DNA of 64,000 nucleotides from a virus (taxonomy: Duplodnaviria > Caudoviricetes), in IMG/VR virus record IMGVR_UViG_2595698685_000001, positions 58,025-122,024 of that record; one strand, 5' to 3'. Below the pieces are notes generated by a model. That model saw only the letters and a list, made by a program, of their open reading frames with translations. It was not told the origin of the DNA and did not search any database. The position numbers and the translations under genes are program-made. Below are positions 4,589 through 64,000 of the stretch, one piece after another; within the stretch, counting starts at the first letter, position 1; each line of letters opens with the position of its first letter.

Positions 4589-4993
4589 ATGGCAGCAGTA
4601 ACCCAATGGACCGAAGAACTTTTCAACGAACTGGCCTCTGAATACCAATCAAAGATCAATGCGTATCCAGAAGACGAGCGTGGAACAGTTAGTATGGAAA
4701 TCGTTAACGAAGTAGCAAAAGCTGCTGGTGTAACAGCTAACGGACTTCGTATTAAACTTACCAATGCTGGTCTGTATGTTCGTAAAACTACAGTAACTAA
4801 ACCTGCCGCAACTAAAGGCGAAAGCAAATCTGGTGGAGCACGCACATCTAAAGCAGATGCACACAGTGCACTACGTGGAGCATTCTCTGATGCAGGTCTG
4901 GAAGATGGATTCTTAGATGATGAAATCATTGATAAGTTAACTGGTAAAGCCGCACTGCACCTTGCAGAAGCTGTTCGTAAAATCACTAAATAA
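4589..4993 (+). CDS. D3: D3 DNA-binding protein
   Basis: 134 aa; WTEELF...GLRIKLTNAGLYV...IIDKLTGKAA pattern; position matches T5 D3. Confidence 0.8.
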   Translation: MAAVTQWTEELFNELASEYQSKINAYPEDERGTVSMEIVNEVAKAAGVTANGLRIKLTNAGLYVRKTTVTKPAATKGESKSGGARTSKADAHSALRGAFSDAGLEDGFLDDEIIDKLTGKAALHLAEAVRKITK

Positions 4994-6533: not shown

Positions 6534-7497
6534 AGATTTTATACTACAGTGCCAAGAAGCCTACTATGAGGGTAAACCAATCATATCTAATGAGGAGTAT
6601 GACGCTTTAGTATTAAGGAATCCTCAAGAAGAGGAAGGCATAGGGGTGGAAGGTGACCAACCCCATCTATACCGAATGTATTCTCTTCAAAAGGTTTACC
6701 CAAATAGAGGGGACAGTACAGATATTCTAGAAGGCAATATGCTTATAGAAACCCCTAAAATTGATGGCTGTGCTATTTCTCTCCTGTATATTAAGGGAAA
6801 ATTAGTTCAGGCGTTAACTCGTGGAAATGGTACTAAAGGTAAAGATGTTACCCTTAATGCGCGTCAACTAAATATTCCACGAACTATTAGTAGACTTCAG
6901 CCTACACAGATCACTGGAGAAGTTGTAGTAACAAAAGAAGTGGAAAACATGCGTAACTATGCTTCAGGGGCTATGGGATTAAAGGACTATGACGCTTTCT
7001 TAGGCAAGATCATGGAAGGGGGACTAGTATTCGTAGCGTATGGAGTACAGGAAAGCACTTCTTATGTAGGTATTACTGATTCTTATCGCTGGGACTTAAG
7101 ACTTCTAGTAGAAGAAGGGTTTCTTACTGTAGGGGATATTGATCTGCATTTTAATTGGTATCCTACGGATGGTACGGTGGTTAGAGTAGACTACAATGAA
7201 GACTTCTTTAATTTAGGGTGGACTAACAAGTTCCCTAGGGCTGCATTTGCAATTAAAGAAGACGAGGAAGGGGTAGAAACTATCCTTCGCAGAGTGGAAT
7301 GGGCTACTGGTGCATCTGGTAAAGTAACTCCGGTAGGACATTTTGATCCTATAGTCATAGATGACGCTACTATCTCAAAAGCCACACTAAACAACGTAGG
7401 GTATATTAATATGCTTGACTTAGAGATAGGATGCAAGATATCAGTTATTCGTGCTGGGGGTATTATACCCAAGGTCATAGAGCGCGTGTATGACTGA
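6517..7497 (+). CDS. ligA: NAD-dependent DNA ligase subunit A (adenylation + OB domains)
   Basis: KIDG adenylation motif, TRGNG, RNYASG, PTDG, ATLNN, GGIIP. Confidence 0.93.
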   Translation: MKQVIKDFILQCQEAYYEGKPIISNEEYDALVLRNPQEEEGIGVEGDQPHLYRMYSLQKVYPNRGDSTDILEGNMLIETPKIDGCAISLLYIKGKLVQALTRGNGTKGKDVTLNARQLNIPRTISRLQPTQITGEVVVTKEVENMRNYASGAMGLKDYDAFLGKIMEGGLVFVAYGVQESTSYVGITDSYRWDLRLLVEEGFLTVGDIDLHFNWYPTDGTVVRVDYNEDFFNLGWTNKFPRAAFAIKEDEEGVETILRRVEWATGASGKVTPVGHFDPIVIDDATISKATLNNVGYINMLDLEIGCKISVIRAGGIIPKVIERVYD

Positions 7498-7541
7498 AAA
7501 CCCGTTTAAACGATTTCCTTTAGTGAATTAATAAAACATCG

Positions 7542-7570
7542 TTGACATTTACGCCGACACACTGTATACT
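7542..7570 (+). promoter_or_regulatory. Sigma70-type promoter
   Basis: TTGACA-17-TATACT. Confidence 0.85.
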
Positions 7571-7629
7571 ATTATTCATTGATTCGGGAAGGACAACTTA
7601 AGAGCGAGCAAATACAGGAAAAATTGTAT

Positions 7630-7658
7630 TTGCTTTCAAAGCTAAGAGTTGTTATAAT
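7630..7658 (+). promoter_or_regulatory. Sigma70-type promoter
   Basis: TTGCTT-17-TATAAT. Confidence 0.85.
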
Positions 7659-7688
7659 ATATGTATAGTGATTAGTAAGGAACCTCAA

Positions 7689-8438
7689 TTGAAAATTGAA
7701 ATACCAACACACTGTCCTTCCTGCGGAGGTAAACTTGAACTAGTTGAGGCTCAATTGTTTTGTAGAAACAAAGATGCCTGCCCCGCACAATCCTCAAAAC
7801 TTCTAGAACAGTTTTGCAAGAAACTAAAGCTAAAAGGTTTTGGGCCACAAACACTAGCTAAGCTAGGGATTAGTTCTATATCAGAACTGTGGTTTTTAAC
7901 AAAGGAAGATCTAACACTAGCAGTAGGAGCAAAAGTAGCAGCTAAACTAGAAATAGAGTTAGCAACTAAACTTAAAACTGCTGTTATGTTTCAGGATGTT
8001 TTAGCTGCATTAGGCATACCTTTATTGGGTGATGTTGCAGCAAGGAAGTTAGCCACGGAATTTAATTCTTTCAAAGGAATTAAGGCGGAAGGTAAACTAG
8101 GTGAGAATCTACAGAAGTGGTTAGAATCTACATCAGGTAAAGAAATAGTTGCTCTGCCATGGACATTTGTTCATAAATCCAGCTCTATAGCTTCCAAGCA
8201 ACTTGGAATAGAAGTATGCATTACAGGTTCATTACGTGACTATAAAAATCGTAATGATGCCATCGAATATTTAACAGGTTTAGGAGTTGTAGTCAAGGCT
8301 ACAGTGACTAAATCAGTCAAGTATCTAATCTGTGAAGATGATAGCAAAAAAGCTTCATCCTCGTACAAAAAAGCCCAACAGAACGGGATAGAAATCCTGT
8401 CAATCAAAGAACTCTTGGAGAAAATTTATAATGTCTAA
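7689..8438 (+). CDS. ligB: NAD-dependent DNA ligase subunit B (Zn finger, HhH, BRCT)
   Basis: CPSC...C...C zinc finger, LGIPLLG HhH, VCITGSL/KAQQNGIEI BRCT; likely TTG start at 7689 after AAGGA. Confidence 0.9.
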   Translation: MKIEIPTHCPSCGGKLELVEAQLFCRNKDACPAQSSKLLEQFCKKLKLKGFGPQTLAKLGISSISELWFLTKEDLTLAVGAKVAAKLEIELATKLKTAVMFQDVLAALGIPLLGDVAARKLATEFNSFKGIKAEGKLGENLQKWLESTSGKEIVALPWTFVHKSSSIASKQLGIEVCITGSLRDYKNRNDAIEYLTGLGVVVKATVTKSVKYLICEDDSKKASSSYKKAQQNGIEILSIKELLEKIYNV

Positions 8439-55252: not shown

Positions 55253-55669
55253 TTAAACTTCCGCGCTTTCTTTAACCTCATCGAACACGCCTAGCAGCTT
55301 AGCCAGATTTTCTAGCGCGTCGAGCTTCACGCTTTCCAGACTGGAAAACTCATCAGTGTTTTCGATAAGCCCTTGCTCAATGGCATGTTTACCGAACACG
55401 CGCACGTAGTGAGCTTTGCGAACAGAGCTACCGCCACCGATTTTACGGGCTTTTTCCGCCTTCTGGTAAACGCCAGCGCTTACCAGCTTAGAACGAACCT
55501 TTACAGGACTACCCGCGCCAATTTCGTTAGAAATGGTAATCAGGCCGTCAGTGTTGGCTACGTCAATACCAGATTCCAGAAGAATAGACTCATAGCGAGA
55601 AACAGCAATGGCACTGTTATCATCGTTCCATGCGAATTTTTCATCTTTCTTTTCTTTAGCTTTAGACAT
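55253..55669 (-). CDS. A2: A2 DNA-binding protein (second-step transfer)
   Basis: 138 aa; FAWND, VRSKLVSAGVYQK, LESVKL; T5 synteny; related to D3. Confidence 0.88.
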   Translation of the reverse strand: MSKAKEKKDEKFAWNDDNSAIAVSRYESILLESGIDVANTDGLITISNEIGAGSPVKVRSKLVSAGVYQKAEKARKIGGGSSVRKAHYVRVFGKHAIEQGLIENTDEFSSLESVKLDALENLAKLLGVFDEVKESAEV

Positions 55670-57223: not shown

Positions 57224-57505
57224 AATTTACTCCAGTTGTTTTAAGGGTATGTTATCCAGTGTGAGGACTAACTTAATCCACTAGTCTAAGCCCTACGCAG
57301 TTTCACTGTATTCAGCGTACATTGTTAGGCGTTGCCTAGCGTTTGGGATAATCCTCACACGAAAAACACACTCTAAAATTGGAGTCTATAGCTAATTCCA
57401 AATTTTTAAAGAGCTAAGGCGGGTAATTTGCTTTTCAGACTTCCCCGCGCTTTACTGTTTCGCTGGCTACTTAGCGTTTCCGCTTCACCGTTGAAACTGA
57501 ACATC

Positions 57506-57534
57506 ATCATAAAGCCTATTCGCTAGGCTGTCAA
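57506..57534 (-). promoter_or_regulatory. Strong pre-early promoter
   Basis: TTGACA-17-TATGAT on minus. Confidence 0.85.
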
Positions 57535-57674
57535 GCGTACTTTTTGCTGTAGTCGTAAAGAGTTTTTAGCTCTTTCATATCATCTTCCCAAATCCTAGCC
57601 TTTTGTTCGGTATTTAAGCTAGGGTTATTCTGAGTAGATTGAGCGAGTACCAAGTATTTATGGTAAAGACTCAT
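57531..57674 (-). CDS. 47-aa small protein (not in ORF track)
   Basis: GAGG SD; MSLYHKYLVLAQSTQNNPSLNTEQKARIWEDDMKELKTLYDYSKKYA. Confidence 0.7.
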   Translation of the reverse strand: MSLYHKYLVLAQSTQNNPSLNTEQKARIWEDDMKELKTLYDYSKKYA

Positions 57675-57688
57675 ATATTGGTATCCTC

Positions 57689-57829
57689 TCATTTGGTGGC
57701 CTCATATCGAGCTTGTAACTCTTTCATCATGTTGTCCCAAATCATCGGTAAGCCTTGTTGTAAGCCTTTCTTATAGCCTTTATAACGGCGGCGTACATCA
57801 ATCTGCATTAACGCTAATGTATTTTTCAT
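57689..57829 (-). CDS. 46-aa small protein (not in ORF track)
   Basis: GAGGT SD; MKNTLALMQIDVRRRYKGYKKGLQQGLPMIWDNMMKELQARYEATK. Confidence 0.7.
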   Translation of the reverse strand: MKNTLALMQIDVRRRYKGYKKGLQQGLPMIWDNMMKELQARYEATK

Positions 57830-57878
57830 TTAATGACCTCATTCACTAGGGAGCGAATGGGCTTTATTGATGATGTTC

Positions 57879-57894
57879 AAATTGTTAAAGAGCG
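57879..57894 (-). promoter_or_regulatory. boxA antitermination-like element
   Basis: CGCTCTTTAACAATTT on minus; further copies at 57401-57415, 58186-58198, 60596-60608. Confidence 0.75.
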
Positions 57895-57938
57895 AACTAG
57901 ATAGTAACCTGATAGGCTTGCTATTTGCAAGCCTTATT

Positions 57939-58136
57939 TTACCAGTTTTCTTCCTGAATTTCCGTAGCCTTCTTAATCTGTACGCGGTGAGGTTTAACAT
58001 CATGCTCTTGTTGCATTAGAGCAAGAGTGCCTTGAGCGTCTGTAGCGTCGTTAGTGTAGTAAGAAGCCTTACCAACATTTACACGATACTCATCATAAGA
58101 TTCACTAAAGATGATGGAAGATTTAACAGTTGACAT
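57939..58136 (-). CDS. Hypothetical pre-early protein
   Basis: 65 aa; YYTNDATDAQGT motif; enclosed by a 25-bp inverted repeat. Confidence 0.72.
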   Translation of the reverse strand: MSTVKSSIIFSESYDEYRVNVGKASYYTNDATDAQGTLALMQQEHDVKPHRVQIKKATEIQEENW

Positions 58137-58262
58137 GATAAGATTCCCTATTGGAGTAAGCCTATCAGGTCACTATCTAGTTAACTTGTTAAAGAGCGGT
58201 GTAGGTGAACAAGGGCTTAATGTTGCGCCTTTCAATGTTCTGTACTGCGTCCTACGGGATAA

Positions 58263-58291
58263 ATATTAGCAAGGCGCGTAGAAGCCTGCAA
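58263..58291 (-). promoter_or_regulatory. Pre-early promoter
   Basis: TTGCAG-17-TAATAT with TG extension on minus, followed by boxA. Confidence 0.7.
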
Positions 58292-58372
58292 CCTCATATT
58301 TGTAAAGATTTGTAAGCACGCTTACCCTGCTAGAGTATGGAACCGAGCACGCACGTTGCATAAGTAAATCAT

Positions 58373-58710
58373 AAAGTCAAGCTATTTCTAAACTACTGTA
58401 TATTTATACATGCCGCTAAAACGCTCTAAAACGCATTCTAAGCGGTTTTCTGTCTAACTGGTACATTCATACCGGAACAAAAAGATCTCACTAATGCGAG
58501 TAATTCTCATTTGGAACGAAAAGTTGGCACGCTGTTTGCTTATACTTGTAAATGCTTGTTTTACTGCGTGTTTTTGAAAGTCAAGTTATTTCTCAACTAC
58601 TGTATATTTGTACATGCCCCTAAAAGCTCCTAAAACGCATTCTAAGGCGTTTTTGCTCCTACCTATACCCTAGTACCAAAACAAATAGATCTCGATTTAG
58701 CACTTTTTGC
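58373..58710 (+). repeat. Two copies of a ~115-135 bp module (third copy at 63083-63213)
   Basis: GTCAAG..TACTGTA..CTAAAA..AGATCTC shared; 33-bp identity 58678-58710 = 63181-63213. Confidence 0.85.
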
Positions 58711-58919
58711 CACATAAAAGACTTGACACCTTGATTTTATTGAGGTTGAGCGTTTGCGTATATAGTGGGCTAATAGTGTAGCCCCGAAACTATTTTCTGG
58801 TAGCTGTCTAATAGTACCCTAACGTAATTATTTGCTAGGGTATTATATAATCACGACATGGGACTATTAATGAGGTAAGCAGTTAATGAGAAACACTATC
58901 ATTTGACTTACCCCCATAG

Positions 58920-59105
58920 TTATCCACACCCTGTATAAACATACATACCCCTAAAACTTCCTGAGACGAGTTATTAACAGGGTTATACACAGGTTATCCT
59001 ACTGTGTATTTATACAGTAGTTTCTGGTAGCAAGTTATTCTGATATACCCCTAGAACGCTCTAAACGGGACGTAGTGAGGGTTAATTTAAGGGAACATAC
59101 TAAGG
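58920..59105. repeat. Left arm of ~180-bp imperfect inverted repeat (right arm ~62865-63060), with DnaA-box and SOS-box matches
   Basis: CAGGTTATCCTACTG..TATACAGTAGTTTCTGGTAGCA is the reverse complement of 62938-62980 apart from a few central mismatches; similarity extends on both sides. Confidence 0.85.
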
Positions 59106-59128
59106 GTTAACTTTTTGGCTGGCGGCTT

Positions 59129-59160
59129 AAAAAGAAGGGCGCTTTATGATTGCGCCCCTT
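59129..59160 (-). terminator. Intrinsic terminator
   Basis: GGGCGC/GCGCCC stem + U-rich tail on minus. Confidence 0.7.
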
Positions 59161-59164
59161 GTTG

Positions 59165-59383
59165 TTAGTCCTGTAAATGGTAAGGTAATTCACTTTCAAG
59201 AATCAAGGTGATCCCCCCGATTGTGTCTGGCTTCTTAGAGCTAGGGTTATTAGCTATGATAGCCCGTATTGAGTCGTTATAGAATGGGTCACTAGTGTTC
59301 TGGCACTGTAGATACTCTAAGGTCTCATCGTCAATAATGACGTCTATCTCATTGATAACTTGTACTTTTAATAAGTTACACAT
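59165..59383 (-). CDS. Hypothetical protein
   Basis: 72 aa with GGAGG SD. Confidence 0.72.
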   Translation of the reverse strand: MCNLLKVQVINEIDVIIDDETLEYLQCQNTSDPFYNDSIRAIIANNPSSKKPDTIGGITLILESELPYHLQD

Positions 59384-59567
59384 CGCTTACCTCCCAACGA
59401 TCACACTCCCCATAACTATCGAACAGGTTTTTAAAATACCCATCATCATCTAACGTCAGCTTATCAAAATGCCCGCCTGCAACTAACGCTCTGTTTTCGT
59501 CAGTATCGGGAACCATAAACACGTTCACTTCTTCCCTTATCTGTTTGATTCTAATCATGTTAGACAT
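59376..59567 (-). CDS. Hypothetical protein
   Basis: ATG 59567 with GAGGT SD. Confidence 0.72.
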   Translation of the reverse strand: MSNMIRIKQIREEVNVFMVPDTDENRALVAGGHFDKLTLDDDGYFKNLFDSYGECDRWEVSDV

Positions 59568-59701
59568 ATCTGTTACCTCACACAAAAATTAAAAATAGGA
59601 TAAGTATTGCTACCACAACTAACAAGCTGGTGTTATGTCTGGACACCATACCCACACGGCGAACGTGTGGGTTATGCTTGCTGGTGGTCTGCCTTGCACC
59701 C

Positions 59702-60073
59702 CTAGCCATTACGAGCGCCTAGAGCGTGAACCGTACCCTTGTTTACATACATACTTTCCGTTCGTAGATTCTCAAACATGTCAAGTATTTGATCTTCCTG
59801 AACACAAACACATTCCCCTAACATATGGATGTGTGCCGTGCCGTGGTCTGCAAACTGATTTAACACGCTGTTAATAACTGCAACATTTACAACGTATGTT
59901 TCCCCAGCATAGCAGACTTTGATATGTTGGCAAGGGTAGGCGATAGCCATAGATAGCGCACGACCTAACAGGGGTACGGGAACCATGTTAATGAAGTCAT
60001 CGCCAGCGTATACACTAACGGGGCGTGGTACAGGTTTAGGTAAGCTATTGATAGATAGCATGGTTAGCTCCAT
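59702..60073 (-). CDS. Hypothetical protein
   Basis: 123-aa ORF in the leftward operon. Confidence 0.65.
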   Translation of the reverse strand: MELTMLSINSLPKPVPRPVSVYAGDDFINMVPVPLLGRALSMAIAYPCQHIKVCYAGETYVVNVAVINSVLNQFADHGTAHIHMLGECVCVQEDQILDMFENLRTESMYVNKGTVHALGARNG

Positions 60074-60582
60074 ACGATTTGGGTTACGCTACCATATGGG
60101 GCGCTAGGGATGTCGGAAATAGCAGCCTGTATAAAGCCGTCCACCAGCTTAATATTTTCCTTGCTATCGCCTGCCATAGCAAACCCTAACGCCTGCGTGT
60201 CAATGGTTAAAGTAACCCCGTCTAGTGTAGCAATGCCAGCCTCAATAAGCACGTCAAGCAATGCCGCCTCATCGCCACCGCCTGCCGTGTACCCCATATG
60301 ATAGCGTGGGTCAAAGTGGTAGGCTACGCCGCACACATTTTCGTTAGGTATCCATTCGCCGGTTTCTTCATCTTCTTCCCCGTCATAACCCCAGCTACTA
60401 GCGTGCTCCATAGCTAACTCGTGGAGGTCACGCAAAATGTCAGAACCTTCAAGGTAGTAGGTAAGCTCTGTGGAGTCGGAACCACAATAACCAGTACATA
60501 GGCTTTGCAAAACTATAACCGTATGTGTGGGGGTGTCCTCAATACAAACAGAACGTTCAGCATCTTTATAAGATAAACCCAT
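60064..60582 (-). CDS. Hypothetical acidic protein
   Basis: ATG 60582 with GAGGT SD, just after a boxA copy. Confidence 0.75.
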   Translation of the reverse strand: MGLSYKDAERSVCIEDTPTHTVIVLQSLCTGYCGSDSTELTYYLEGSDILRDLHELAMEHASSWGYDGEEDEETGEWIPNENVCGVAYHFDPRYHMGYTAGGGDEAALLDVLIEAGIATLDGVTLTIDTQALGFAMAGDSKENIKLVDGFIQAAISDIPSAPYGSVTQIVWS

Positions 60583-60614
60583 TGTAAACCTCACTTTATT
60601 AAAGAGCGGATAAG

Positions 60615-60638
60615 AAAAAAGCCCCAATTAGGGGCTTT
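60615..60638 (-). terminator. Intrinsic terminator
   Basis: AAAGCCCC/GGGGCTTT + U6 on minus. Confidence 0.78.
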
Positions 60639-60670
60639 AGTGTATCACAGCTAGACTACGCTATGCAAGA

Positions 60671-61633
60671 TTATTCTTCACCGCCAGAAAGCGCTTTCAG
60701 CTTGTCAGCGCCTACGCTGTTAATAGCTTCATTGATCATGCCTTCGATATCGAAAGACTGAATGATTTCGAGTGCCGCCGCCTGCATTGCTGCGTCAGAC
60801 AGCACGACCGCCGCGCGATTGCTGGAAGCGTACTGCGATACGGCGAACGCAAACAGGTTAGCGATAACCGCTTTACCTACAGGCGTATCGATGTAGCCCT
60901 TAATCACGAAAGGTGAACGGTTTTTAACCAGTGTAGTTACCTGATTCAGAACAACACGGCCAGCTTCCAGTTTAGCAGCGGTGATAGCAGCGGTTTTGTT
61001 TGCAGATACGATAGCGGTTACTTTAGACATAGTTTGATTTCCTGTTTCAGTTTGATTAGCGCCAGTAGTGGCGGTGGTGGTAGTTTGCGCCTGAGCGGTT
61101 ACAGTGTCAAGCGTTAATTTCAAATCAATTTCAGTATTATCTTGTCCAGAAGAATTACGGGTAAGACTGTATGCCTTTTCACCCTTGTATACCAGTACAT
61201 GCATAGAACCTGATACGCCAGACAATGCACAATCTTGGAATTGCGAGGTAGTATAAACACCGGCTTCACCGTCGCGGGTACTTGAGATTTCTAGCTTGCT
61301 ACCAGTATTGCGAATAATGATAGCGTCGTGCTTGTTGCCGCTATCATACGGCTTTATCAGCCAGCTTGACTCACTATAGGCGTACACGGCGCTACCTTCA
61401 CCAAATGTGTACGCTAGGGCTAACAGTACATCAGCATATCCGCCGTCACTGTAGACGGTGCGCAATTCTTCACTAGAGCGCAACATATCACTAAGTAGTG
61501 TACCGTTGCGTGCGGTTTCAGTGTTACGGTATTCGCGGGACGAACTAACGTCACCACGTAACAGATTAGTCACCGCACGCTTACCAACGGAACCGCCAGC
61601 GATATCATTTTCATAGACTCTTAACTTAGCCAT
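60671..61633 (-). CDS. Pre-early hypothetical protein (possible internal start at 61030)
   Basis: 320 aa; Thr-rich linker, then a helical C-terminal domain with its own SD. Confidence 0.8.
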   Translation of the reverse strand: MAKLRVYENDIAGGSVGKRAVTNLLRGDVSSSREYRNTETARNGTLLSDMLRSSEELRTVYSDGGYADVLLALAYTFGEGSAVYAYSESSWLIKPYDSGNKHDAIIIRNTGSKLEISSTRDGEAGVYTTSQFQDCALSGVSGSMHVLVYKGEKAYSLTRNSSGQDNTEIDLKLTLDTVTAQAQTTTTATTGANQTETGNQTMSKVTAIVSANKTAAITAAKLEAGRVVLNQVTTLVKNRSPFVIKGYIDTPVGKAVIANLFAFAVSQYASSNRAAVVLSDAAMQAAALEIIQSFDIEGMINEAINSVGADKLKALSGGEE

Positions 61634-61666
61634 TTTTTGATTACCTTGTGTTGTTTGGGAGTCGCT

Positions 61667-61695
61667 ATATTATTCGTACCAAATCACGAATGCAA
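61667..61695 (-). promoter_or_regulatory. Pre-early promoter
   Basis: TTGCAT-17-TAATAT on minus; divergent TGGTATGAT extended -10 at 61717-61725 on plus. Confidence 0.7.
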
Positions 61696-61745
61696 CTAGT
61701 TTTTTATATTGGTTATGGTATGATGTAGTCCTACTAACTGAGGAG

Positions 61746-62117
61746 GTGTCTAGCATGAAACGTTCAATTCTTGCAATAACCCTAGCGTTATCAACGTGTT
61801 CCGGCTTCCAGCCTGCATATGCTGGGGTAGATGGAATATCTGTAGTGTTTGAGTGTGAAGGTAAATCAAACGTTATGACAATCACCAAACACGGTAACAT
61901 GTTTATGGACGGTGACGGGGAAATTGTTATACCTAACTCCCCTGTAGGGTCTACCCTGAAACAGATAGACGGGGGAATAACCCTAGCTGTAGTAGGCGAT
62001 GGGTATCGCACCGTAGGGATAACGTTCAAGGCAGGCCGTAGCATGGTGTTACTGAATGATGATGGTGACGCTAAAGTATGTGTTATGAGAAAATTCCTTA
62101 CAGGGGTTGACAAATGA
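61746..62117 (+). CDS. Hypothetical exported protein
   Basis: MKRSILAITLALSTCSGFQPAYA signal-peptide-like N-terminus; GAGGAGGT SD (true start may be the ATG a few codons in). Confidence 0.75.
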   Translation: MSSMKRSILAITLALSTCSGFQPAYAGVDGISVVFECEGKSNVMTITKHGNMFMDGDGEIVIPNSPVGSTLKQIDGGITLAVVGDGYRTVGITFKAGRSMVLLNDDGDAKVCVMRKFLTGVDK

Positions 62118-62338
62118 AAACTTTATGTGACCACGTTGTAAGGGTAGAGAATAGGGAAGAAGCGTTTATGGCGGCATGTACCATGCTGGCTAAGATTACT
62201 CTCAGGGGTAATAAAGGTGAAGCTGAATGGCATTGGTCTTTTGACCTTGAGCGGCATGATCAATTTCCCTGCATCATCACATATTGCGCTAAGGGTTTAG
62301 GTCACGTAGACGAAAAACTCATATTTAACAAGGTGTAA
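62114..62338 (+). CDS. Hypothetical protein
   Basis: 74 aa, ATGA overlap with the previous gene. Confidence 0.72.
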   Translation: MKTLCDHVVRVENREEAFMAACTMLAKITLRGNKGEAEWHWSFDLERHDQFPCIITYCAKGLGHVDEKLIFNKV

Positions 62339-62342
62339 TGAT

Positions 62343-62441
62343 ATGTCTACCAGTGAAGCTATTGTGCTAGGATTGGTTACTGTGGTTTGCTGTGTTGGCG
62401 GGGTAGCGTTCTTCATTTACGGCATGGTATTACAGGGGTAA
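62343..62441 (+). CDS. 32-aa single-TM micropeptide
   Basis: MSTSEAIVLGLVTVVCCVGGVAFFIYGMVLQG; AAGGT SD. Confidence 0.6.
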   Translation: MSTSEAIVLGLVTVVCCVGGVAFFIYGMVLQG

Positions 62442-62443
62442 AC

Positions 62444-62578
62444 ATGAAAATATCCATCTATAGAATCATCGGGGCTGTGGTGTTAGGTTGTCTAGTGGCT
62501 GTGGGCGTGTTTCTAGGGGTATTAGCTTTCGTGGTATGCCTCAGTCTGATAGACGCAGGTATAAGGAGTATGTTTTGA
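62444..62578 (+). CDS. 44-aa single-TM micropeptide
   Basis: MKISIYRIIGAVVLGCLVAVGVFLGVLAFVVCLSLIDAGIRSMF; AGGGG SD. Confidence 0.65.
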   Translation: MKISIYRIIGAVVLGCLVAVGVFLGVLAFVVCLSLIDAGIRSMF

Positions 62579-62691
62579 AAAAACTTAAACAGCTTATTGA
62601 TTATTGGGGGTATCCTACGTTTAGTATATTTGTACTAGTATGGGTAGTAGGAATAAGCAGCATAGTAGCAAACATAAGGGGCATGTTTTGA
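62575..62691 (+). CDS. 38-aa single-TM micropeptide
   Basis: TTG start in a TTGA overlap with AAGGAG SD; MKKLKQLIDYWGYPTFSIFVLVWVVGISSIVANIRGMF. Confidence 0.62.
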   Translation: MKKLKQLIDYWGYPTFSIFVLVWVVGISSIVANIRGMF

Positions 62692-62813
62692 AACACTGGC
62701 TAGAAGTTGTTACTACCATATCGGGGTTTATGGCACTGGGTATAGTGTGTGCATCGATATCAGTAGGGGCGCTTATTTTTATTGTTATAAGTATGTTAAA
62801 GCTAATAGCTTAA
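62688..62813 (+). CDS. 41-aa single-TM micropeptide
   Basis: TTG start in a TTGA overlap with AAGGGG SD; MKHWLEVVTTISGFMALGIVCASISVGALIFIVISMLKLIA; terminator follows. Confidence 0.62.
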   Translation: MKHWLEVVTTISGFMALGIVCASISVGALIFIVISMLKLIA

Positions 62814-62816
62814 GTT

Positions 62817-62841
62817 AACCCGCTCAGGCGGGTTTTCTTTT
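62817..62841 (+). terminator. Intrinsic terminator
   Basis: AACCCGC/GCGGGTT + T tract. Confidence 0.8.
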
Positions 62842-63234
62842 GGCCTTACCTGCGTAACCCTACACTTTAGTATGCCCAATTAATTTAAACCTCACCACGG
62901 GCTTCCTAGAGCGTTTAAACGGTACTTTAGGACAACATGCTACCAGAAACTACTGTATATTTATCCAGTAGGATAACCTGTTGATAAGTCTGTTGATAAC
63001 TCGATACAGACTGTTTAATGCGTCAAGCTAATTTACAATTCTGTATAAGTCTGTGGATAAAAATTTTAGTAGAATTTTATACGTCAAGCATTATTTTCAT
63101 TACTGTACAAACATACATACCGCTAAAACGCTCTCAAACGCTCTGTACGGCGTTCTGTAGCTAGGCTGTACCCTAGTTCAAAAACAAATAGATCTCGATT
63201 TAGCACTTTTTGCTAAGACAGTAAATTATTTTTG

Positions 63235-63298
63235 TGATTCCACAAGAAAGCGCTTGACTATTTAGATTATTTATGATTCCACAAGAAAGCGCTTGACT
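63235..63298 (+). repeat. 25-bp direct repeat x2
   Basis: TGATTCCACAAGAAAGCGCTTGACT at 63235 and 63274. Confidence 0.9.
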
Positions 63299-63332
63299 TG
63301 CCCTGCGGGGCATGATAAGCGCGGCTTTAGTG

Positions 63333-63485
63333 AATGCGAATCGTTCTCATTCGCATTCCACTTTCTAAATGAGAATGACTATCATTCGTATTCCACTTTC
63401 TAAATGAGAATCATTACCGTTTGTAAATGCGAATGATTCTCATTCGTTTTCAACTTTCTAAATGAGAATGCTTATCATTCTCATT
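63333..63485. repeat. Array of 19-bp Fur-box-like palindromes
   Basis: AATG(A/C)GAAT-N-(A/G/C)(T/C)T(C/A)TCATT-like units at 63333, 63368, 63403, 63426, 63461 (overlapping copy at 63467). Confidence 0.8.
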
Positions 63486-63502
63486 CGTATTCGCGTATAC
63501 AT

Positions 63503-63649
63503 GTGCAAATCCGACATATGTGCAAATCCGACAGTTTTCAGAAGCAGTGGAAATCCGATAATAGTGCAAATCCGACAGTTTCCATGAATAGTGCAAATCC
63601 GATGATAAAATTTGAGGCTCCGGTCTCAGGACGTAGTGAAAATCCGACA
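63503..63649 (+). repeat. Six iteron-like GTGCAAATCCGA(C/T) repeats
   Basis: Starts at 63503, 63520, 63547, 63564, 63591, 63636. Confidence 0.9.
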
Positions 63650-64000
63650 GTATTTTCAAGAGAATACTAAGAACTCTAGCAGTCTTGAGCTGCGCTCAAA
63701 GCCTGTGTTATTTACTAGAATATTGCTAGGGTTATGAGCTGGTGGGCAAGGTATTTTCAAGAATATTTAGTTGACTTTTGAGTGAGGGTATGTGAATATA
63801 TTGCTAGAGATAGTGGAAGGGAGGCGATGTGTGGGAGTTTGGGAGGTAGTCTTGAGGGTGCAGAATTCTCTTCGGGGTGAAGAAGATTCTGCGGGTTTAT
63901 GGGAGAAAATTGTAGATTGGGGGAGATTGGTTGAGTTAATGAAATATTATTCGCTTTTTGGGGGCAAAAGGATTGACAAATGAAAAAGTTCGGGGGGCGG

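Follow-up and report, generated by a model that had tools for sequence, protein, structure and literature searches.

The DNA considered here (the window) is a stretch of 64,000 nucleotides, the final part of a linear phage genome of 122,024 bp with direct terminal repeats of 12,854 bp (genome 1-12854 = 109171-122024). The element in question is a non-coding block at window positions 58140-59165, inside the right repeat copy (repeat coordinates 6994-8019), with minus-strand open reading frames (ORFs) on either side. A sequence-only reading of this DNA, made earlier without database searches, had called the block non-coding, and so it is: the longest ORF that overlaps it is only 52 amino acids (aa) long. 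The same reading took the DNA to be the first-step-transfer DNA of a T5-like phage, and the terminal repeat, the A2 gene and the T5-like relatives all bear this out. The gene for the A2 DNA-binding protein (phrog_1725) occupies 55253-55669, 2.5 kb to the left of the block, and the nearest phage record is that of the T5-like Pectobacterium phage DU_PP_V (79.6% identity across 59% of the block). My1, a Type 2 phage in the 25-phage comparison of 10.1101/866236, has a repeat of the same length, 12,854 bp.

The block is almost certainly the counterpart of Repeat Regions 1 and 2 of T5 (repeats A, A', B, C, D and B'; AY587007; 10.1101/866236). It occupies the same place, to the right of the A2-side operon, and presents the same elements in the same order: promoter leader, GTAAA repeat, the 'IRC' word GAGAAACACTATCATT, DnaA boxes, palindrome D and CCTAAAACGC. 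As in T5, there is an inverted partner in the terminal block. It differs from T5 in the two full ~130-bp units that it has in addition, between promoter and IRC, in its weaker IRC side, and in the strand of the right-hand genes, which is minus here and plus in T5. The element itself is already known, for the repeats, palindromes and DnaA boxes of this region have been published (10.1101/866236; AY587007 annotation). What is new, as judged from alignments and pattern scans, is a conserved leftward sigma70 promoter with a GTAAA repeat upstream of its -35, and a ~130-bp unit that is common to unrelated myoviruses and absent from bacterial genomes by exact-pattern scans. On balance, we lean towards the view that the block serves the T5-like terminal repeat as its central non-coding control region, and that its conserved cis-elements are most likely read by resident host proteins. 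The principal features of the block, and of its partner in the terminal block, are as follows.

58238-58291, minus strand: predicted sigma70-type promoter, with -35 TTGCAG at 58291-58286, a 17-nt spacer, -10 TAATAT at 58268-58263, and the conserved leader TTATCCCGTAGGA after it.
58302-58316, plus strand: direct repeat GTAAA-N5-GTAAG, similar to the CpxR consensus, adjoining the -35 upstream.
58373-58500, plus strand: copy 1 of the ~130-bp unit (GTCAAG, 17 nt, CTGTATATTTATACATGCC, GCTAAAACGCTCTAAAACGCATTCTAAGCGGTTTT, through AAGATCTC; nhmmer E 9e-35), which holds the LexA-like word 58394-58413.
58493-58511, strand not applicable: inverted-repeat arm AATGCGAGTAATTCTCATT, of the TGAGAAT / ATTCTCA repeat family, whose members in the terminal block resemble Fur boxes.
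58525-58540, plus strand: exact match to the sigma54 -24/-12 consensus, TGGCACgctgtTTGCT (TGGCAC-N5-TTGCW, with GG at -24 and GC at -12).
58574-58707, plus strand: copy 2 of the unit (nhmmer E 3e-35), 79% identical to copy 1, which holds the LexA-like word 58598-58617.
58842-58870, minus strand: a second, predicted leftward promoter-like site, TTAATA-17-TATAAT, from a consensus match alone (10 of 12 positions).
58882-59035, plus strand: counterpart of IRC-spacer-IRD, from alignment with T5, Slocum, phiR2-01, Kpn_3, Proteus phage 1 and Vibrio phi3; on the plus strand it comprises Fur-like GTTAATGAGAAACACTATC at 58882, a DnaA box at 58920-58928, a short unit-like piece at 58931-58968, a DnaA box at 58983-58991, and the LexA-type palindrome at 59000-59019.
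62840-64000, strand not applicable: partner block, the counterpart of T5 Repeat Region 3 (injection stop) by T5 annotation and homology; it comprises a LexA-type box at 62951-62970, DnaA-type boxes at 62979, 62991 and 63052, unit copy 3 at 63077-63210, a Fur-like array at 63330-63490 (best site 63464, 3 mismatches), and GTGCAAATCCGAC repeats at 63500-63650.

LexA-type, DnaA-type and Fur-type words

The sequence-only reading had described the block as packed with matches to the sites of different host DNA-binding proteins. The foremost of these, an SOS box, TACTGTGTATTTATACAGTA, at 59000-59019, is present, with 2 mismatches to the 20-mer LexA consensus; by alignment it is the 'palindrome D' of T5. 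Written in the form TACTG(TA)5CAGTA, the consensus is matched with 2 mismatches each by this site and by the partner-block box at 62951-62970. Two further CTG-N10-CAT boxes, held to be near-matches, do lie at 58394 and 58598, but they have 4 and 5 mismatches to the 20-mer, they fail the CAG arm, and CAT replaces CAG in nearly all copies of the unit to which they belong. These two words are probably not LexA sites.

LexA-type sites are concentrated in the repeat blocks. Genome-wide, four of the five matches with at most 5 mismatches fall in the two non-coding repeat blocks, which account for 2.2 kb of 109 kb (2%). CTG-N10-CAG words with at most 3 mismatches to the LexA consensus occur at all eight of the T5-like loci examined, and in the whole genomes of T5, Slocum, phi3, phiR2-01, Proteus phage 1 and Kpn_3 every such word lies in a repeat block; a reversed-pattern control finds none in any of these six genomes. 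Single-mismatch sites are present in T5, phiR2-01 and Kpn_3, and this phage has two sites with 2 mismatches. By comparison, the entire E. coli K-12 chromosome (4.64 Mb) has only five sites with 3 mismatches or fewer, and none with fewer than 2. These five adjoin sulA, umuD, sbmC, dinD and istR/tisB, all of them LexA-regulated genes. Measured in this way the 59000 site is of operator grade, as close to the consensus as the five best K-12 sites.

The likeness to the SOS operators of E. coli (sulA, umuDC, sbmC, dinD, istR/tisB) resides in the 20-bp CTGT-N8-ACAG palindrome with its A+T centre, and mismatches to the consensus number 1-3 in the phage sites, versus 2-3 in the five best of K-12. The phage sites differ from these operators in that they overlap no promoter, abut DnaA-type boxes, form an inverted pair 3.9 kb apart, and occur in the DNA of a virulent phage. 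Among the aligned phages the invariant columns of the palindrome are the CTG and CAG arms together with the adjoining TA and TATA (CTG..TA..TATACAG). From the quality of the site, LexA would very probably bind at 59000 in vitro. Whether such binding would matter in infection is a separate question, and here we put the prospects a little short of even.

The DnaA boxes reported at 58920 (TTATCCACA) and 58983 (TTATACACA) are likewise present; both fit TTWTNCACA and, like the LexA word, are of operator grade. In the partner block, the box at 63052 is exact, and those at 62979 and 62991 have one mismatch each. These clusters resemble the DnaA clusters of oriC and datA in comprising several TTWTNCACA boxes, with pairs 3 bp apart in the partner block; they differ in having no replication function. 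The replication origins of T5 lie mid-genome (10.1101/866236). Alignment of nine IRC-spacer-IRD sequences places the IRC word, DnaA boxes and palindrome D in T5 order throughout. The order common to these composites is GAGAAACACTATCATT, DnaA boxes, a CTTGAC-bearing spacer, two to three DnaA-type boxes, the 20-bp palindrome, and CCTAAAACGC..TTCTAAGCG. This DNA is duplicated in part: 58967-59090 is an inverted copy of 63003-62880, 3.9 kb away and 77.6% identical over 125 nt. The IRC side of this inverted copy is poorly matched, in agreement with the published statement that Type 2 phages are without part of IRC (10.1101/866236).

Of the two Fur-like palindromes proposed, that near 58885 is close to the Fur 19-mer consensus GATAATGATAATCATTATC (4 mismatches, at 58882), but the arm at 58493 has more than 5 mismatches. 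Both are arms of one 19-nt inverted repeat, 58493-58511 and 58885-58903, that are 79% complementary, and the TGAGAAT-family word of the 58493 arm also stands beside the unit in Klebsiella phage FBKp34. Better matches occur in the partner block, where the best, at 63464, has 3 mismatches and there are three sites with 5 or fewer, a result not equalled in any of 500 shuffles. The K-12 chromosome has 13 positions that match with 3 mismatches or fewer, and the six examined adjoin fur, sodA, fhuF, ryhB, fepD-entS and sufA. The best partner-block site is thus of the same grade as these operators, whereas matches within the block have at least 4 mismatches; the good ones form an array in the terminal block. 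Published Fur boxes contain the phage family's repeat word AAATGAGAATCATT, which is identical to part of those listed for A. baumannii (PMC3055841). Fur as a reader is moderately supported by these likenesses, mainly outside the coordinates of the block. As a side observation, a Fur 19-mer match lies in the 3' end of dmp in phiR2-01 (1 mismatch; locus L007, 144-162) and in T5 (3 mismatches; locus L002, 228-252).

To gauge chance, the sequence 58140-59165 was shuffled 500 times with dinucleotide composition preserved. A best LexA match as good as that observed, or three sites, arose in 0 of the 500 shuffles; two exact DnaA boxes arose in 2, an exact sigma54 match in 1, and a Fur match equal to the best of the block in 4. 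Enrichment over chance holds, then, for these four families, but it fails for the CpxR-like repeat, which was equalled in 127. The LexA site counts are not independent of one another, because a single repeat family supplies three of the four LexA-like sites; best-match statistics are unaffected by copy number. Comparison of the T5-like loci, and the alignments, show that the motif families are conserved in relatives and are not due to chance.

Promoter, sigma54-type match and the ~130-bp unit

The predicted leftward promoter reads into the pre-early operon, a series of small ORFs that ends with A2, A1 and dmp. Its -35 TTGC and -10 TAWTAT are kept, with a spacer of variable length, in eight of ten aligned sequences (seven T5-like phages and FBKp34). 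The -10 and the leader are present in all ten, the remaining two, PBES02 and KP13-26, having a shifted -35. The leader pattern, with 0-3 mismatches, is found in this phage and in six of the 11 other loci scanned. A consensus promoter scan missed this promoter because its -35 scores only 3 of 6. Part of the block is, to judge from this conservation, an ordinary sigma70 promoter.

Directly upstream of the -35, and in the direction of the promoter, is CTTTAC-N5-CTTTAC, the reverse of GTAAA-N5-GTAAA. The CpxR-like repeat that had been picked out at 58302-58316 is present here with 1 mismatch, and it is conserved, but the match in this single genome is no better than chance. At the homologous place, GTAAA-N5-GTAAA is exact in DU_PP_V, T5, Slocum, phiR2-01, Kpn_3 and FBKp34. 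Proteus phage 1 has it with 1 mismatch, and in Vibrio phi3 no homologous repeat was seen. That a protein of the OmpR family binds the repeat is possible, though somewhat less likely than not.

The sigma54-type match, TGGCAC-N5-TTGCT, is also as described, exact and at 58525-58540. Vibrio phi3 has two exact matches, one of them at the same place after the unit, and in DU_PP_V and FBKp34 the word at that place is one mismatch off. Exact matches number 12 in K-12, versus 4 for the reversed control. The case for sigma54 as a reader is moderate, and actual binding by the holoenzyme is possible, if on the doubtful side.

The window has three copies of the ~130-bp unit, a tandem pair within the block and a third in the terminal block. 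Among T5-like phages, full or partial units are present in DU_PP_V, Slocum, Vibrio phi3 and Proteus phage 1. Beyond them, units are present in Klebsiella phages FBKp34 and KP13-26 (Stephanstirmvirinae), Cronobacter phage PBES 02 (Vequintavirinae) and Pectobacterium phage Arno162 (Ounavirinae; core only, in three copies). In all, 229 phage records of several families match the unit, and its orientation relative to the neighbouring promoter varies among phages. Arno162 and the T5-like phage KPN4 share with copy 1 a 34-nt core at 100% identity, and KP13-26 shares 33 nt. Its presence in Stephanstirmvirinae, Vequintavirinae and Ounavirinae means that the unit is no peculiarity of the T5 family. In exact-pattern scans across 185,579 bacterial species genomes, which cover those exact patterns only, no copy of the core was found.

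The unit appears to function at the DNA level rather than the RNA level. Thirteen copies yield no conserved RNA structure: the consensus fold is -1.76 kcal/mol, with 5 predicted pairs and 0 compensatory changes, and this supports a role as DNA. Like the promoter-early stem-loop cassettes of T4-type phages, these units are short non-coding early-region modules that have apparently been exchanged among phages; unlike them, they have no supported stem-loop, and they span unrelated phage families. The possibility that the unit is itself a sigma70 promoter was rejected, since its TTGAC words have no -10 partner. The sequence-only reading had noted several TTGAC hexamers, at least some of them without a matching -10; in fact all four copies (58723 and 58903 on the plus strand, 58380 and 58584 on the minus strand) are without a -10-like hexamer 16-18 nt downstream.

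Two side observations concern the unit. GATC, within ..ATAGATCTC.., is present in nearly all full-length copies, here (58477-58483, 58681-58687 and 63184-63190) and elsewhere, and is possibly a Dam or SeqA site. FBKp34 and PBES 02 have in common a G+C-rich element of ~45 nt, ..ATGGCACCTGATGCAGGGGGAGACAAACACCG.. (locus L003, ~2700-2760; locus L010, ~2355-2400), which adjoins the shared unit, in opposite orientations, and is absent from this phage.

Candidate readers of the block

Entry of T5 DNA halts after about 8%, and the reason has been an open question for decades; papers of 2023 and 2026 (the latter PMC13250531) call the stop mechanism untested or poorly understood. Operator-grade LexA sites, DnaA boxes, Fur-type arrays and sigma54-type sites point to concrete candidates for what reads the stop DNA. 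Among the matches listed from the searchable literature, none describes LexA, Fur or sigma54 sites in this T5 DNA, as the sequence-only reading had believed. In the main text of 10.1101/866236, a word search finds no LexA, SOS, sigma or promoter, and the 'Fur' matches shown are words such as 'further'. The conserved blocks are a lead on the control of early DNA entry and gene expression in T5-like phages, and the cross-family unit suggests that virulent phages share non-coding early-region modules, a layer of the genome that is hardly annotated.

No phage protein is yet present when the DNA enters, and the modules are partly common to unrelated phages; from these two circumstances we infer that the readers are resident host proteins. 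For LexA and DnaA this is well supported at the level of sequence. The course of events might be as follows. Sigma70 RNA polymerase would start pre-early transcription leftward, through the small ORFs to A2, A1 and dmp, from a promoter that has a response-regulator-type direct repeat, or an UP-like element, just upstream of its -35 and, farther upstream, the two portable ~130-bp units and the sigma54-type site. The IRC-spacer-IRD, in which DnaA boxes abut the LexA palindrome, is an inverted copy of the injection-stop core 3.9 kb to the right. LexA and DnaA would load on these two inverted composites during entry, and Fur mainly on the partner block, and the resulting LexA/DnaA/Fur nucleoprotein complex could help to keep the DNA in place, or to halt it, until A1 and A2 come into play.

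The sequence-only reading had also offered the block as an injection stop, and in this it was mistaken about place. The block is a mid-repeat control region, and by homology with T5 Repeat Region 3 the pause should occur at 62840-64000. The other functions it had suggested, an injection ratchet, a shield against nucleases or a regulator decoy, are hypothetical. Some contribution of the block to the pause is conceivable, but we consider it unlikely. A bolder version of the proposal appears less likely still: that the first-injected DNA is a purpose-built docking array for LexA, DnaA, Fur, sigma54 holoenzyme and an OmpR-family regulator; that the inverted composites and the Fur array arrest translocation until A1 and A2 clear them; and that the unit is a portable docking module traded among virulent phages of Enterobacterales and Vibrio.

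A number of observations weigh against host proteins as the readers. The consensus scan finds no promoter-like site over 59000-59019, the nearest being that at 58842-58870, and since the LexA palindromes overlap no promoter either here or in T5, they are not classical operators. In 12 of the 13 unit copies the LexA-like word closes with CAT, and this constancy argues that the words at 58394 and 58598 have another reader. T5 grows on recA cloning strains, so LexA cleavage is not required for infection; a LexA timer, in which self-cleavage of LexA after A1-driven breakdown of host DNA times the second transfer, was rejected on the same ground. The sigma54-type match is missing from five of the eight T5-like phages (T5, Slocum, phiR2-01, Kpn_3 and Proteus phage 1), and no gene was found downstream of it, the only plus-strand ORF nearby (58511-58633) being 40 aa long; nor did any RNA family match there. 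The GTAAA repeat is not significant by itself, and although it fits the CpxR consensus, another OmpR-family protein or an UP-like element could fit equally well. The best Fur match within the block is a weak one. Finally, the block lies 3.7 kb to the left of the presumed stop block.

The alternative that survives best is that palindrome and repeats are sites for phage proteins, the A2 DNA-binding and A1 nuclease-like proteins that restart transfer, and that their likeness to host operators is incidental. A2 belongs to a family of DNA-binding proteins (phrog_1725), and A1 and A2 are required for second-step transfer (10.1101/866236). The full CTG-N10-CAG palindrome is confined to T5-like phages, being found in none of four unit-sharing phages of other subfamilies; it is thus T5-family-specific, which is what one would expect of a site for A1 or A2. 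Both its centre and its flanks also show more conservation than LexA alone needs. Against this, matches to LexA at 18-19 of 20 positions in several genera, where the best in K-12 has 2 mismatches, are hard to obtain by accident, and it is the arms read by LexA, CTG and CAG, that make up the invariant columns. Moreover, the pause in T5 occurs without phage protein synthesis (10.1101/866236), which implies that something pre-existing, a host component, reads the stop DNA. We regard sites for A1 and A2 alone as improbable; the two readings could both be true, for example if A2 displaces LexA.

According to the classical view of the T5 stop region, DNA structure alone—cruciforms, bends, or pairing of the inverted copies—is responsible, with no sequence-specific host proteins. 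The block does have many inverted repeats and palindromes, and its 125-nt inverted copy 3.9 kb away, and secondary structure is still listed as a possibility in PMC13250531. The arms of the palindrome are short, however, at about 7-9 bp, and structure leaves unexplained both why the sequence itself, and not only the symmetry, keeps to the LexA consensus from genus to genus, and why Fur and DnaA consensus words occur in the repeats. We think this quite improbable as a full account. Much the same can be said of a third alternative, in which the ~130-bp units are mobile cassettes (a small transcription unit or non-coding RNA gene, or a promoter cassette) and the LexA-like word is part of a promoter or transcript. 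The wide distribution of the unit, in either orientation to the neighbouring promoter, accords with this, as do its multiple copies in Arno162, KP13-26 and FBKp34, and the TATAAA or TATATT that stands 17 nt after GTCAAR in most copies. But GTCAAR is a poor match as a candidate -35, and the copies show neither covariation nor any match at Rfam gathering score. Chance, in an A+T-rich repeated spacer scanned against many consensus sequences, could account for the CpxR-like match, for the weak Fur matches in the block, and for other words that can be read by eye (NarL-like TACCCCT and TrpR-like CTAGTTAACT), but as a general explanation it is very improbable, and for LexA and DnaA it is largely refuted, by the shuffle tests (which sigma54 also passes), by conservation of the families at homologous places in distant phages, and by the natural-genome controls.

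Flanking features

The remaining features lie at the margins of the block or just beyond them.

57885-57922 (left) and 58155-58192 (right), strand not applicable: arms of a 38-nt inverted repeat, 84% complementary, which brackets the 65-aa ORF.
57939-58136, minus strand: 65-aa ORF, phrog_7884, between the arms of the 38-nt inverted repeat.
59036-59065, plus strand: truncated unit core, ..CCCCTAGAACGCTCTAAA, from a direct-repeat search.
59064-59088 and 59089-59113, plus strand: tandem 25-nt direct repeat, 76% identical, between the region of the LexA-type box and the terminator.
59129-59159, minus strand: predicted intrinsic terminator for the minus-strand genes that lie upstream (from 59165 on), with a G+C-rich stem of 8 bp and then UUCUUUUU (-15.9 kcal/mol, z -2.2).

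By position, the 38-nt inverted repeat resembles the T5 inverted repeats A and A'. The 65-aa ORF was considered as the counterpart of the T5 ORF between A and A', and rejected, the two having no similarity (E 1.6). It is the first gene downstream of the leftward promoter, and is followed by a 46-aa ORF (57689-57829, minus strand) that is 45% identical to the 67-aa ORF of T5 at 4714-4917 (E 5e-12). The T5 ORF would, from its position, be hdi, the T5 cell-division inhibitor gene (bioRxiv 10.64898/2026.04.02.716235).

No tRNA genes were found within the window, and an Rfam scan of 57500-64000 gave three weak matches, far under gathering scores and none inside the block. A search for relatives through A2 among viral contigs found none. 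A pattern scan of IMG/VR gave 42 loci, of which one, on a 106,185-bp contig, is an evident relative; the others are estimated to be at chance level and were not used. Contigs of four DNA metagenome runs were also compared with the block, and the differences are not counted as evidence. Among the 41 listed, of 69 in all, a single one (58610 G>A) affects 58598-58617, and 58302-58316, 58394-58413 and 58525-58540 are untouched; a group of eight lies at 58334-58351, and several rows at 58981-59010 stem from the inverted partner copy.

In the partner block, GTGCAAATCCGAC(A) is repeated at least six times at 63500-63650 and is the 'direct repeat D' of T5; Vibrio phi3 has a related GGTGCAAAACCGAT series (locus L006, 7510-7790). 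Just before the terminal block, at 62488-62834, are two small plus-strand ORFs (67 and 57 aa) among genes that are all on the minus strand, and these are followed by a plus-strand terminator-like hairpin, 62817-62834.

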